Shown here: in pieces, positions 5,100 through 32,987 of the stretch | Layout: the number at the start of each line of letters is the position of its first letter | How positions within the stretch are numbered: the stretch's first letter is position 1 | From: Escherichia phage FFH2 | Length of the DNA stretch: 64,000 nucleotides | Reading direction: 5' to 3' (one strand) | Sequence record: KJ190158 | Position numbers and translations under genes: made by a program | Notes under the pieces: model-generated | Databases searched by the model: none | The model's input: only the letters and a program-made list of their open reading frames with translations | What the model was told of the DNA's origin: nothing

Positions 5100-6082
5100 T
5101 GCTAAAACTGTGCACTGCAAAGATCATTGCTGACAGCATTTCCGAGAAAGGTAAGCGTATCACCACTTTTGAACTAGAGTATCCTCGAATTATTCACTCA
5201 GAGCTTATGACGCACCGAGTATTCAGCCGAAACGCCATGTCTTCCCGTGCAGTGCCTGTCGGCAAGATGCTGCAGCAGATTGTGGAGAATCCGGCAATGC
5301 CAGTTCGCTTCGGTGTAAATAAGCGAGGGATGGAAGATGGTGGGGAACACGATCAAAAGATCCGTGTAGAGTACACTGACATGGAGCTAACCCCTGAAGA
5401 GTTTTGGAAAGAAGCTGCAAAAAACGCCGCTTGGCATGCAGAGAAGTTCGCCCTTGCTGGTTACCATAAACAAGTATGTAACCGCTTAGTGGAGCCGTTT
5501 CAGCGCATGAAAACAGTTGTAACAAGCACAGAGTGGAATAATTTTTTCCATCTCCGTTGCTGGCACGATGCGGATCCTACGATTCAGATGTTGGCTAATT
5601 GTATGTGGGAAGCTCTTGTGAATAGCACTCCTGAAATCCTTAAACCAGGTCAATGGCACACTCCATATGTAGAGCACGTTTATTTGGACGGAGAGTTTAA
5701 CTACGCTGTACGTGACACAGAAGGAAAGCTCTGCATTCTTGATACTAAAGAAGCTCTGTCTATTAGTGCTAGTTGCTGTGCACAAGTATCTTATCGAAAT
5801 ATTGACAGCACGTTTGAAAAGGCAGACAGTGTGGCTAAAAAATTGATTGGTGGGGATCGTATTCATGCAAGCCCTTACGAACACCAGGCAACACCTATGG
5901 ATCATGATAACGCAATGGAACGTTTAAACTACTACCTATCTTCATGTGAAATCACACAAGACATTAGTACTTGGCAGGAAGGTGTAACCCATCAAGACCG
6001 TGATGGTAAATTCTGGTCTGCCAACTTTTGTGGGTGGGTTCAGCACAGACAACTGCTTAATAACCACTTCGTGAAAGGTTAA
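5099..6082 (+). CDS. thyX: FAD-dependent thymidylate synthase ThyX
   Basis: HSELMTHRVFSRNAMSSRAVP matches the ThyX signature RHRxxSxxxxSxR. AAGGAG SD upstream. Confidence 0.9.
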   Translation: MLKLCTAKIIADSISEKGKRITTFELEYPRIIHSELMTHRVFSRNAMSSRAVPVGKMLQQIVENPAMPVRFGVNKRGMEDGGEHDQKIRVEYTDMELTPEEFWKEAAKNAAWHAEKFALAGYHKQVCNRLVEPFQRMKTVVTSTEWNNFFHLRCWHDADPTIQMLANCMWEALVNSTPEILKPGQWHTPYVEHVYLDGEFNYAVRDTEGKLCILDTKEALSISASCCAQVSYRNIDSTFEKADSVAKKLIGGDRIHASPYEHQATPMDHDNAMERLNYYLSSCEITQDISTWQEGVTHQDRDGKFWSANFCGWVQHRQLLNNHFVKG

Positions 6083-29156: not shown

Positions 29157-29372
29157 ATGAAGATAGAAATATTTGGTGGAGCTGACAACACTCGTGGCCT
29201 GATTTACCTTGAATTTGATGAATCATACCTGCCAGAGGTGTTAAATATAGACTCTGTTGCTGAGGCTTTGGGAGTAAACCCTAAAGAACTCCACTCTTGT
29301 GCTGAGATCGATGGTTGGGAAGAGACCATGAACATTGATTTCAGTGAAGTAGAGGATGAACCGCTGGACTGA
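29157..29372 (+). CDS. hypothetical acidic protein, last plus-strand gene
   Basis: MKIEIFGG...EVEDEPLD with an AGAGGAGA SD. Confidence 0.55.
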   Translation: MKIEIFGGADNTRGLIYLEFDESYLPEVLNIDSVAEALGVNPKELHSCAEIDGWEETMNIDFSEVEDEPLD

Positions 29373-29499
29373 CACACAATTAGCTGCCCGGCTAAAGTGC
29401 TGGAAGCACCTATAACACATCTTTCAACTAAATTTCCTACCACCACAATCACTTACCTCCCACACATGACTGTTTGCTTGTTTAGTGAGCAGTCATGCC

Positions 29500-29527
29500 T
29501 TGACATTCTTGCCTATCCTGATAAAAT
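29500..29527 (+). promoter_or_regulatory. sigma70-like promoter firing into the ORF-free region
   Basis: TTGACA-16 nt-TAAAAT, just after a CATGACTG...CAGTCATG hairpin (29465-29497). There is no ORF downstream for about 2.3 kb. Confidence 0.5.
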
Positions 29528-30842
29528 TAAGTTCTTCTCTTTTCTTTTACCGAGTAATTCGGGTTTTCTGTTCTCTTCGGTTTGAAGGGGTATAGAGATA
29601 CACCTGAGTGAACAGGGTGAACAACCGAACATTTGGCTATGGCATTAGCATGGCGAAGCGGACGGGTGACGAAAGAGGGGCCGGAGGACACCAGTCACTG
29701 CCATATGATATATGGGTGATAACCTGAAGAGTCTGAATAAGTGTTTAAGTACCAGTCAGAGGAAAAGGTGAATGGTAGCCGAAGGGGGAGGGGGGTTTCT
29801 TGTATCTTTAATTTGTATATTATGTATACACTTGTAAACCAATCTCATCTGAATTTGTTTACCACACAAAGTGGATAGGGACAAATATTACCTATTAAAC
29901 TTGAATTATTTATAGAAATACCACAACACCACTTAAGTCTTTGATTTTACACACAAATCCTACAGATATTCACCCTCCATATTTAACATACCTGTAACAT
30001 ATTCCATACCCTACCTGACCGATCAATTCACCCAACTACATCCCCATATTTTCCCTGTCTGTACTACCCCTGCCCCGCCGGGAGTCCCGTCATATCTGGC
30101 TTTCCAGCAAATATCACACCCACAAATATCATTGCCTGAAGAGGGTTTCATCCCATAATACATGCCTTACCTGAAGAGCGCTTCATACACCACGTAAATT
30201 TTTTAATTGACCCCCTCCCCGCCGCCGGAGAGGTTGGCTTTTCCCACACAGACCTGAAGAGTCAGCCAGAAATATCTGAACAGGTCCAGCTATGCCACGA
30301 TTTTGTGCTTGTCCTACAGGAGTGCCTCCCTGTCAGGAGCCGGTAGCGACTGGAGTGCTGCCAGGCGGACGAAATGGGAATCATTCTCATTCTTATAACA
30401 ATTCTCAAATATCGAGGCAGTGAGGCAAATTAATAGGTGAGGCCGTTCACACAATGGCACAACATTTGCAACCTATCTTGTGGGAGTGAATGAGAATACC
30501 TATCATTGTGAGAATAGTTATCATTACGGGCAATTTAACATAATACCCATTATGCGCACCACTGGCGATCCATACAGGGATTGATAACATGGGTTACTGT
30601 TTACACACATAACAATTATATTTCTTACTATTTGTGTGGGATATAGTTAGCAGCCGATAGATTAGATATTGACCTGTAGACTTCCAACCGTCCAGACGTC
30701 TAAACGCCCACACAACAAGGGTTATACATACACAACTGAATGTAAACAGGGCCGCAAAAATGCTACCATACAAGCTTGTAAATTTTTCATGCAGCACTTG
30801 ACAAAGAGGAGGAAAACTTGTCTGACACTTTAGACACAATAG

Positions 30843-31168
30843 TGACATAATATGACATAATGGTGACACTGAACATAATTGACATGCCTGACTGTTTACA
30901 TAGCTAACTATTCATACAGAAATGATAAGCCATGCCATTCGTTTGCATGATAATAATTAACTTGTTTACAATAGATGACATAATATAAAAGCAGGGCAAC
31001 TATTAGAAGATCTATAGTTGCCTTGCTTGTTATGTCATGATTAACTAAATACAAGGCAACTATGATCTGATTAATAGTTTGCAGACAAACTATCACGGGG
31101 GTGATGGTTACTGCTTTTATATTATGTCGCGACTCCGTCGCGCCATGCCATTCGTTTGCATAGTTGCC
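30843..31168. repeat. cluster of three short repeat families (TGACATAAT, GGCAACTAT half-sites, 20-mer GCCATGCCATTCGTTTGCAT)
   Basis: TGACATAAT at 30843, 30853 and 30976, plus inverted near-copies at 31029 and 31121. GGCAACTAT/ATAGTTGCC at 30995, 31014, 31055, 31074, 31086 and 31160. The 20-mer at 30929-30948 and 31142-31161. Confidence 0.8.
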
Positions 31169-31778
31169 TTATTGTTACAGATAAAATAATTGTATTGTTA
31201 ATTATTTCTTATCTTTCTCTTAGTCATCTAATGATTCCAGTCAGTATAGTAATGTACAGTAAACATTAGACGACTAAAGATTTCTCTGTTTATTATAACT
31301 TACCGTGACAATTTCAGGCTGTTTACGAAAAATGTTGACACCTGGGCCGATTTATGTTATGCAGTTTACACGAATAATTATTTTATGCAGGTATTGACTA
31401 TTCCGTTATTCTATGGTTGGAATAAATACTTAGCAGACTATAGAATGGTGAGCGTACGTAAATTCTGAGATCTGGCGGCTATAGTTATACTCGATTTTTC
31501 ACGTAGAACACGCTTTTGTTAGTGTGTAAGTGTATGACTTATAAAGATTTTTAGTTGTTGACAAGATATTGAAGATGTGCATCAGGTTAAATTTTGTGCA
31601 ATAGCGGCATTACGTGCAATTTTGAGAGAGAAAACGGGTAAAAATGGCCTTGCTATCACACAATGAAAAATTATGCAATAGTTATTTTACATGTATGTTT
31701 GTACAGTGTGTGGGATTGATGGCTAGTCAATTATTCCACTTGCCAGGCTGGGCCGTTTGTGGTAGGAGAAATACAGAC

Positions 31779-31806
31779 AAAAAGAAAGGGGCCTTTTAAA
31801 GCCCCT
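31779..31806 (-). terminator. rho-independent terminator ending the minus-strand small-gene block
   Basis: Minus strand: GGGGC-tttaaaag-GCCCC followed by TTTCTTTTT. Confidence 0.75.
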
Positions 31807-31824
31807 GATAGTTTAGTTAAGAAA

Positions 31825-32244
31825 TTATAATGATTCGTATATTTCATAGATTCGATTTGCCAGGTCGTTACGGTAGCGGAATTTTTCCTCACGTTTGATC
31901 ATCAGATCTTTAAAGCCATATTCTTTAAGCACTTCATTAACTTTATGGCGGCATACCTTCATATTATCCTGTGCGTCACCAATAAACCTGTTGCTATGGT
32001 GCATGGCTTTAATTTCTTCTTCCAGGACCAGAGCAACTATGCGGACCGGATCAAGCTGATAGGCGGTAACATCCATGCGGCATTGTAAACGACTTTTTAC
32101 GTCTGCCACCGGATATACTGCAACCTCTTCCCCGTCAACATTGACAATAATTAGTTTACCATCGATTTCGAATCCTTTCGCCGCCGGACCGTGACAAAAA
32201 GCGTTATCAAAGCTATATGCCGGATTATTAGATTTAATGTTCAT
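31825..32244 (-). CDS. hypothetical protein
   Basis: 139-aa ORF with an AAGAGGTAAAA SD and its own promoter upstream. Confidence 0.6.
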   Translation of the reverse strand: MNIKSNNPAYSFDNAFCHGPAAKGFEIDGKLIIVNVDGEEVAVYPVADVKSRLQCRMDVTAYQLDPVRIVALVLEEEIKAMHHSNRFIGDAQDNMKVCRHKVNEVLKEYGFKDLMIKREEKFRYRNDLANRIYEIYESL

Positions 32245-32714: not shown

Positions 32715-32987
32715 TTACTTATGGCGGCAGAATTCAAGCGTTTTTAATTGATAATCTTCCTCAGCCTGGAGTACTACCGCCTCGATCATTTCGTTGGCAT
32801 TGTTAAAGCCATAACCTTTAGCGAACTCATCCGCGCCACCTTCGTGATCATGTTCTGCGTTCATCGCTTCCACAAAATGGAATTCCAAATTGTTGAGGTA
32901 GGGGCTTGATGTTCCGTCCTCTTTTTCGATGAGATCCCAGATAGCATTAAAACGTGATTCGACTTCTTGATTAATCCAGCTTGACAT
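32715..32987 (-). CDS. hypothetical acidic protein
   Basis: 90-aa ORF with a GAGAGGAAAA SD preceded by a GGGCA...TGCCC hairpin and a TTGACA-17-TAACAT promoter. Confidence 0.6.
   Translation of the reverse strand: MSSWINQEVESRFNAIWDLIEKEDGTSSPYLNNLEFHFVEAMNAEHDHEGGADEFAKGYGFNNANEMIEAVVLQAEEDYQLKTLEFCRHK

Follow-up and report, generated by a model that had tools for sequence, protein, structure and literature searches.

A conserved multi-hairpin element beside the direct terminal repeat of Vequintavirus phages, a candidate cis element for chromosome-end processing

Escherichia phage FFH2 carries a dense cluster of repeated and inverted words in DNA that lacks genes, which raises the question of what the cluster does there. 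We studied it in the window, the whole 64,000-nucleotide stretch of record KJ190158 that was analysed. The phage is a Vequintavirus (rV5-like coliphage) and a 137-kb myovirus, and the 2.45 kb around the cluster matched 120 phage records at 90-99% identity, essentially all of them Vequintavirus. The cluster lies inside an ORF-free gap of ~2.4 kb (29400-31825) between convergent gene blocks. The rightward genes end at 29372 and the leftward genes at 31825, the equivalents of rV5 ORF163 and ORF164, and the nearest gene is 650 bp from the cluster and converges on it. The rV5 paper draws the gap as a grey 'non-coding' box without a function (PMC3606486). Both this gap and the direct terminal repeat (DTR) discussed below are already published.

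Composition profiles identified an AT-rich zone at 30600-31600, with 33-36% GC vs 42-45% in the flanks. GC skew around the cluster merely tracked the switch in transcription direction, in agreement with the rV5 authors, whose skew analysis showed changes in transcription direction only (PMC3606486). GATC/Dam sites were not enriched at the cluster compared with the rest of the genome. A Pfam search of nine flanking small ORFs, which small novel DNA binders would escape, returned no domains and no HTH, and hence neither a candidate binding protein nor an initiator-like ORF near the cluster.

The preliminary description of the cluster had listed six half-sites, five copies of a second word and a duplicated 20-mer, and had proposed a repressor operator, a pac site or a centromere-like site. 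Its coordinates were all correct on re-check. Of the six half-sites, four are exact copies of GGCAACTAT or its complement ATAGTTGCC, at 30995 (+), 31014 (-), 31055 (+) and 31160 (-). These occur nowhere else in the 64 kb and all fall within 174 bp, against 0.58 copies expected from shuffles. The remaining two are degenerate, with two mismatches each (ATAGTTTGC at 31074 and ACAAACTAT at 31086). The first pair forms the perfect 9-N10-9 inverted repeat that had been described and extends to 15 nt at 93% complementarity. Exact copies of TGACATAAT were likewise found where reported, at 30843, 30853 and 30976, and its inverted near-copies at 31029 and 31121 were borne out with one mismatch each; a further exact copy lies at 32982, and shuffles predict 0.93. 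The window contains just two copies of the 20-mer GCCATGCCATTCGTTTGCAT, both exact, at 30929 and 31142. TGTTTAC does recur here, but in seven copies on both strands between 29856 and 31320 rather than about eight, vs 12 copies in the remaining ~62 kb. Absent from the earlier list was the largest feature of the cluster: 30977-30994 and 31111-31128 form a long-range inverted repeat, perfect over 18 nt, with most of the half-sites between its arms.

The cluster sits beside the point at which the chromosomes of close relatives end. The Gotham and HdK5 genomes each open and close with the same 459 bases (identity 459/459), and the Gotham record annotates a 459-bp repeat_region at both ends. The first base of both genomes maps to window position 30364, and the EdH4 and ECP2309 records begin at that same base. 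Terminal repeats of 458/459 bp have been published for rV5-like phages by two laboratories independently (PMC6563267; PMC7471380), the second of which used a TruSeq library and noted the 'same specific start sequence' (PMC7471380). From this homology we infer that the FFH2 DTR occupies 30364-30822, where the window holds it once, as in a concatemer or circular assembly. The repeat and its two flanks are as follows.

30314-30363, strand not assigned: left-flank short-repeat array of three ~15-bp units, CTACAGGAGTGCC, CTGTCAGGAGCCG and GCGACTGGAGTGCTGCCA
30364-30822, strand not assigned: DTR (459 bp), placed by homology to Gotham and HdK5, with left end GGCGGACGAAATGGG and right end ...AAAACTTGTC, then TGACA
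30823-30925, + strand: right-flank hypervariable short-repeat array, directly abutting the DTR

Circular permutation or headful packaging has been reported for vequintaviruses, in the rV5 paper (PMC3606486), for the bov phages and for BpE1AUH. These contrary reports derive from Nextera libraries or assembly-level inference. The bov phage records were rejected as independent evidence on termini: they came from Nextera libraries, were called 'circular permutated' and were later re-started at the same base. A headful pac site was also rejected, as the close relatives have fixed ends and an exact 459-bp DTR and are not permuted. The preliminary description had agreed to give up its reading if the repeats were absent from close relatives and no termini or protein occupancy mapped here. 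Chromosome ends do map here by homology and the cluster begins (at 30843) only 21 bp past the DTR inner boundary, so that its own ground for withdrawal falls away. The packaging-related option it offered gains support, although not in the form proposed, whilst the operator and centromere options are weakened.

Conservation changes abruptly at the DTR boundaries. Among Vequintavirus relatives the DTR interior is 90-97% conserved (mean identity 0.90-0.97), compared with 0.63-0.67 in the right array; the sequence is invariant as far as the CTTGTC-TGACA boundary and hypervariable past it. Directly outside each DTR boundary lies one of the two variable zones, in non-coding DNA without conserved ORFs. 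On the left, an alignment of 15 Vequintavirus sequences showed 1-4 units of about CTACAGGAGTGCY per genome with the boundary-proximal unit conserved, and in the conservation profile this array overlaps a hypervariable zone at 30257-30356. The right array is built from ~10-bp TGACAYWWTR units followed by (A)CTGTTYAC, and includes TGACATAAT at 30843 and 30853 and TGTTTAC at 30893. Its length ranged from 83 to 261 bp among 19 relatives, which differed in both the number and the sequence of the units and shared an invariant first TGACA. Position and copy-number variation among relatives place both arrays with the DTR-flanking repeats of the T7 SRL/SRR type.

Beyond the right array lie the following features, among them the core of the cluster (30975-31141).

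30929-30948, + strand: 20-mer direct repeat copy 1, GCCATGCCATTCGTTTGCAT, an exact duplicate of 31142-31161
30949-30975, strand not assigned: variable spacer of AACTTGTT/AACAAGTT-type units, with TGTTTAC at 30963
30977-30994, + strand: outer stem left arm GACATAATATAAAAGCAG, 18/18 complementary to 31111-31128
30995-31022, + strand: hairpin/palindrome P1, GGCAACTAT-N10-ATAGTTGCC, extending to 30989-31028
31029-31037, - strand: inverted TGACATAAT near-copy GTTATGTCA, closing an alternative local hairpin with 30976-30984
31055-31082, + strand: hairpin/palindrome P2, GGCAACTAT-N10-ATAGTTTGC, with an imperfect right half
31086-31109, + strand: hairpin H3, ACAAACTATCAC-GGGG-GTGATGGTT, including the degenerate half-site at 31086
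31111-31128, + strand: outer stem right arm CTGCTTTTATATTATGTC, including the inverted TGACATAAT near-copy at 31121
31129-31141, + strand: small hairpin H4, GCGAC-TCC-GTCGC, leading into a conserved CGCGCCA motif
31142-31168, + strand: 20-mer copy 2, overlapping the fourth exact half-site ATAGTTGCC (31160-31168)

Along a concatemer the parts would follow one another as right-end unique DNA, variable array, DTR, second variable array, 20-mer, spacer, hairpin element, 20-mer. The hairpin element itself measures ~150 nt (30977-31128), with P2 spaced 60 bp from P1. The left arm overlaps the third TGACATAAT (30976-30984), and the TGACATAAT copies make up the outer 8-9 nt of the long closing stem, a word that is reiterated in the right array. 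Among relatives the 20-mer is conserved, the spacer at 30949-30975 carries insertions of 0-60 bp, some with a GGTGACC...GGTCACC hairpin, and rV5-type genomes have a 33-bp insertion immediately before the near-copy at 31029. Folded as RNA, the 211-nt core gave z-scores of -8 (+ strand) and -10 (- strand), and with DNA parameters -9 on the + strand. In a predicted alternative two-domain fold the region of 20-mer copy 2 pairs with 31046-31064.

The core proved far more constant than its surroundings. Over 30975-31141, 62 of 116 records were at least 99% identical to the window and 44 were 95-99% identical, and the remaining 10 differed only by the 33-bp insertion; across the whole 2.4-kb gap just one of 120 records reached 99% identity. 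The near-invariant stretch runs from 30975 to about 31177. The P1 half-sites were invariant in 18 distinct relatives, with spacer position 31008 (A or C) as the sole variation, and the single half-site exception was one phage whose 31160 copy has G in place of A. In the FV3 record the whole core is gone through a clean deletion between the two 20-mers; either plaque growth does not require the core or the palindrome was lost from the record as a cloning or assembly artefact. The distance from the core to the cut site varied by about 250 bp among close relatives, out of helical register, which argues against a binding site that positions a nuclease.

This pattern also bore on several simpler explanations that were considered and rejected. 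The enclosed segment has a single orientation in 116 of 116 genomes, against an invertible segment (inverton). A MITE-like mobile element is contradicted by the single copy, the fixed locus and 20-mers that are not adjacent to the arms. A 62-aa ORF at 30908-31096 (- strand) is contradicted by a core that is invariant across all three codon positions and by a frame that crosses the indel-rich spacers.

We then compared the homologous ORF-free gap of seven further lineages, which share gene order with the window but not sequence. In all eight lineages the gap holds a perfect 15-22-nt long-range inverted repeat around 2-4 hairpins, an architecture that spans five genera.

Window (Vequintavirus): left arm GACATAATATAAAAGCAG, 116 nt between the arms
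A5-4: left arm GACACTATAAAACGAG, 71 nt between the arms
Metagenomic L012: left arm GACATAATAACGCTGAG, 82 nt between the arms
Mydovirus KPP-1: left arm AGCGACACAATAACACGGGAG, 164 nt between the arms
Seunavirus PVP-SE1: left arm GACACTATAACACGAGAG, 183 nt between the arms
Seunavirus EspYZU12: left arm GCGACACTATAACACGAGGG, 183 nt between the arms
Henunavirus Hena1: left arm AGCCACCTATAAACGCTGATAG, 204 nt between the arms
Phapecoctavirus: left arm GCTAATAATAAGCCA, 97-98 nt between the arms

Four of these lineages have mapped ends, with a DTR at the homologous site, and there the element lies 155-309 bp from the DTR; the architecture is found in four more. The distances of the element past the DTR are listed here.

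Window: 155 bp, DTR by homology
Phapecoctavirus Mt1B1_P17: 197 bp, DTR of 328 bp
Henunavirus Hena1: 261 bp, DTR of 519 bp (annotated)
Mydovirus KPP-1: 309 bp, DTR of 514 bp (PhageTerm, T7-type)

No comparable long inverted repeat was found within the DTR or on its other side. The hairpin sequences of A5-4, L012, KPP-1, PVP-SE1, Hena1 and Phapecoctavirus are unrelated to GGCAACTAT whilst the architecture is kept, indicating that selection acts on pairing and not on that word. In L012, H3 reads TAACAC-GGGG-GTGTTA, with the stem altered on both sides and the GGGG loop kept. The right arm is followed by a GC...(T)CGCGCCA motif in five of six further Vequintavirinae lineages, and by CGCCACC instead in Hena1. 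Searches for additional cases added little: the ORF164 search in IMG/VR for related loci gave only three loci, and a BLAST search of the L012 core against the phage collection gave no match. An IMG/VR scan with the flank motif TGTCGCN{6,10}TCGCGCCAY, which is dominated by random matches and serves only as a negative control, found the inverted repeat in none of the 120 matches listed.

Selection on pairing was also visible in the outer stem. For this we aligned six distinct Vequintavirinae arm sequences by register over 16 nt, with Phapecoctavirus omitted; the two Seunavirus arms are identical over these 16 nt. Thirteen of the 16 pairs change on both sides, with no one-sided changes and no G-U in 96 cells, and slid controls paired at 27-55%. 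All 96 cells pair, a figure that is partly by construction because the arms were found by a perfect-inverted-repeat search; the covariation and the shared position of the arms do not depend on that search.

The predicted folds further distinguish the two strands. The + strand (window orientation) folded more stably in eight of eight lineages, about seven of them independent, with both RNA and DNA parameters, and the predicted structures contain 28 G-T pairs on the + strand vs 12 on the - strand. On these models the bias points to function as a single strand of defined polarity, and G-rich loops rather than selection could be a partial cause. Within the predicted folds the GGCAACTAT half-sites appear to behave as stems of a folded single strand and not as protein recognition words, whilst in Vequintavirus the four 9-mer copies could be protein sites as well as stems. 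An ssDNA element and a structured ncRNA fit the covariation and strand bias equally well.

Taken together, the sequence evidence leads us to favour, tentatively and at somewhat less than even confidence, a strand-specific cis element for packaging or concatemer-end processing. We give a modest chance to the more specific proposal that this is an undescribed conserved ssDNA element of Vequintavirinae, and analogously of Phapecoctavirus, that signals the start of DTR copying; with the same modest chance, that signal might operate by loading a primase or primosome or by fold-back priming. A concatemer junction has one DTR and each packaged genome requires a pair, which makes duplication of the repeat necessary. 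Published models of terminal-repeat duplication use strand displacement, primase initiation or a hairpin (PMC4281155). In FFH2 the predicted strand-specific multi-hairpin fold occurs solely to the right of the DTR, which on the + strand places it 3' of the stretch that would be copied.

A possible sequence of events is as follows. A nick at the left boundary of the DTR would let a polymerase peel off the top strand, and the displaced strand would carry the DTR, then the array, then the element. The element, acting as a folded single strand and specifically as the + (top) strand, would lie 3' of the DTR and could start synthesis back across the array and the DTR. Whether primed by a loaded primase or primosome or by folding back of the strand, this start would yield a second DTR copy per packaged chromosome. 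Such displaced-strand geometry would explain the one-sided element, the folding of the + strand and the variable distance to the cut, and would need no conserved promoter. An equally compatible variant is that terminase assembles on the hairpin structure as a landmark. In either case the hypervariable arrays would lie on the discarded side of each cut, where they may be auxiliary binding repeats like T7 SRL/SRR or the scars of breakage and repair.

Three other readings were weighed against end processing. A structured ncRNA gene on the + strand, with a regulatory, decoy or anti-defence role and only an incidental proximity to the DTR, is rather unlikely. It would account for the covarying outer stem and the fold z-score of -8, and the + strand bias with its excess of G-U-type pairs is the classic signature of a transcribed strand, although the outer stem itself has no G-U in its 96 cells. 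TGACATAAT resembles an extended -10 element, and there are promoter-like matches at 30822-30879 and 30957-30984. However, the only conserved -10-like word sits within the left arm, so that a transcript initiated from it would miss the arm and be unable to fold into the conserved stem. Within the genus the DNA preceding the left arm varies, across lineages no conserved sigma-70 promoter was found there, and in PVP-SE1 a hairpin resembling a terminator lies 5 nt before the arm. There is no conserved T-run terminator (L012 is without one), and Rfam gave no match on the element at E<=1 in the window and five other lineages.

Lower in probability is a replication origin or general priming site that recruits the phage primase-helicase or host DnaA/PriA independently of packaging. 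The adjoining AT-rich stretch (31170-31300) and the combination of repeats with palindromes would suit an origin, three perfect DnaA boxes (TTATCCACA) occur in the DTR-equivalent of L012, a divergent relative, and the terminal-repeat boundary of T5 carries a similar repeat region rich in DnaA boxes. In the window, though, a scan gave no cluster of DnaA boxes, on which ground the TGTTTAC units were also rejected as such boxes. Phased iterons are lacking, as the GGCAACTAT copies alternate in orientation and the direct arrays differ in both unit number and period; no initiator gene was found close by, GC skew tracks only transcription direction, and the FV3 record is without the core. We consider it still less probable that the cluster is a duplex operator array, in which a dimeric protein (repressor-like or small terminase) binds GGCAACTAT-N10-ATAGTTGCC. 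Two 9-N10-9 palindromes 60 bp apart with isolated half-sites at 31160 and 31086 (the latter degenerate), half-sites that stay invariant while the P1 spacer varies, and a site close to the packaging cut all speak for such an array. Against it, other genera keep the architecture without the word, and perfect arms of 15-22 nt placed 71-204 nt apart exceed the needs of a binding site and covary. Strand bias is unexpected for duplex recognition, there is no gene within 650 bp to regulate, the nine neighbouring ORFs have no DNA-binding domain, and the distance to the cut site is not fixed.

The candidate end-processing element can be set beside several known systems. Details of the SRL/SRR short repeats of T7 were reportedly given by Dunn and Studier in 1983, and we know of no T7 array whose units reiterate the outermost word of a conserved hairpin element next to it, as the right-hand units do here. 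In the T7-like Yersinia fPS phages, 11-34 short repeats lie next to the left terminal repeat and vary among relatives (PMC5923468). The likeness to such phages is in the non-coding tandem units of ~7-15 bp just outside the terminal repeat, present at both junctions in the window, and in a copy number that differs between near-identical phages, seen here in the 83-261 bp right array. The unit sequences are however unrelated, and the phages compared are a 137-kb myovirus and a 40-kb podovirus. At the T7 concatemer junction, terminal-repeat duplication has been placed on a hairpin or primase-initiated intermediate in the work of Chung and Hinkle (1990), as it is cited in PMC4281155. Both phages have a short DTR once per concatemer junction that is duplicated before packaging, and an inverted-repeat or hairpin structure beside the repeat is implicated in both. 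By contrast, the basis in T7 is biochemical and the window element is known from sequence alone, as a multi-hairpin of 100-250 nt with a 15-22-bp closing stem and no sequence shared with T7.

T5 offers a likeness of another kind in its Repeat Region 3/injection stop signal, a large untranslated region that runs from the terminal-repeat inner boundary into unique DNA, with nested repeats and palindromes at that boundary; the three DnaA boxes in the L012 DTR-equivalent recall T5's eight. The T5 repeat is however 10 kb and coding, its region is tied to two-step injection, and the window lacks a DnaA-box cluster. We know of no two-step transfer in rV5-like phages. Long stems around two or three small hairpins start DNA synthesis in the G4-type complementary-strand origin, PriA sites and the T-shaped hairpins of AAV ITRs, which are strand-specific and ~100-200 nt long. 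The likeness to these is in shape and geometry only, with no sequence similarity, and the window element is internal, 613 bp from the physical end, rather than terminal. Headful pac sites and lambda cosB share with the cluster repeated words in alternating orientation next to a terminase cut, but ends of the window type are fixed, with a short exact repeat and without a permutation series, the distance from the cluster to the cut differs among relatives, and no terminase gene was identified beside the cluster. A literature search found no description of the conserved hairpin element, which has no Rfam family. We place the cluster among the cis elements that flank phage terminal repeats.

The rV5-like phages rank among the coliphages isolated most frequently and serve in therapy cocktails, yet deposited records of them begin at arbitrary positions, and circular permutation is ascribed to them in many papers. 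Recognising the rV5 'non-coding box' as lying at the chromosome end gives a rule to orient and annotate more than 100 genomes, and the hypervariable arrays are natural strain markers. The hairpin module is a likely essential cis region, to be preserved or used for packaging heterologous DNA. Even for T7, only models have settled how a short terminal repeat acquires its second copy, and a conserved, covarying, strand-specific element sited exactly where a priming or processing signal would be required makes the question of DTR duplication testable in a tractable E. coli phage. If the proposal is true, it would provide a defined cis site for end duplication in non-T7 phages with short DTRs.

Ultra-conserved non-coding DNA lies at window positions 29457-29806, in a block with 98-100% identity in the 15 vequintaviruses compared, where its conservation is higher than that of the neighbouring genes. 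It overlaps a promoter-like site, and the greater part of the block lies downstream of that site. The + strand of the block is purine/G-rich, and fold z-scores were -2.0 for this strand and -0.4 for the - strand. Rfam gave no match for the block, which we regard as a candidate phage ncRNA. A further 650 bp of non-coding DNA, conserved at 88-99%, separates the hairpin core from ORF164 (31180-31825). It shows G skew on the + strand, reaching +0.29, and contains several promoter-like words. The promoter-like sequences and ORF164 are placed as follows:

29500-29527, promoter-like site, TTGACA-16-TAAAAT with TG, near-consensus (11/12)
31335, 31394 and 31559, TTGACA-type promoter-like words inside 31180-31825
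31828-32244, - strand, ORF164, encoding a protein of 139 aa

The ORF164 protein has no Pfam domain. Vequintavirus and Phapecoctavirus are members of different subfamilies; the protein is 90-91% identical between them, and in both groups ORF164 is the first gene inside the direct terminal repeat (DTR). Despite this protein identity, the non-coding DNA beside the gene is unrelated between the two.

The outer word of the left arm of the hairpin element recurs in the array units adjoining the DTR (30843-30861), and the right arm could therefore pair with array units instead. Positions 30843-30861 and 31119-31128 give a 10-nt perfect match across a 265-nt gap. PVP-SE1 has an additional left-arm copy upstream (locus L154, 3243-3257; 15 nt, 285-nt gap). 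The array units in the window and the extra copy in PVP-SE1 may thus offer a second choice of partner for pairing.

L012 (IMGVR_UViG_3300045988_159287), a divergent metagenomic phage of the rV5-like kind, has a group of three perfect DnaA boxes (TTATCCACA) inside its DTR-equivalent. They fall within 48 bp (5840-5887) and share one orientation, and one TGTGGAAAA variant lies 150 bp from the group. These boxes recall T5, whose injection-stop region has DnaA boxes.

Matches in the phage collection included approximately 18 UNVERIFIED, unannotated records titled 'Campylobacter phage' (MG0656xx). Over the end-module region they share 90-99% identity with E. coli vequintaviruses, and they are probably coliphage genomes, mislabelled or contaminant.

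Variant end modules were also seen among relatives. In the record of Shigella phage CM1 (L019, MK962749; locus approximately 1643-2280) the complete DTR occurs twice, the second time 63 bp beyond the first, an arrangement that amounts to a tandem duplication of the DTR plus 63 bp of array. Either the end module is truly duplicated in this phage, or terminal reads have given rise to an assembly artefact. In FV3 (L024, NC_019517) the whole hairpin core is cleanly deleted between the two 20-mers of the direct repeat, whilst in V18 (L025, KY683736) an A12 run stands where the TGTTTAC units and 20-mer copy 1 are missing. Both are deletion variants, either natural or artefactual, and could serve for tests of function.
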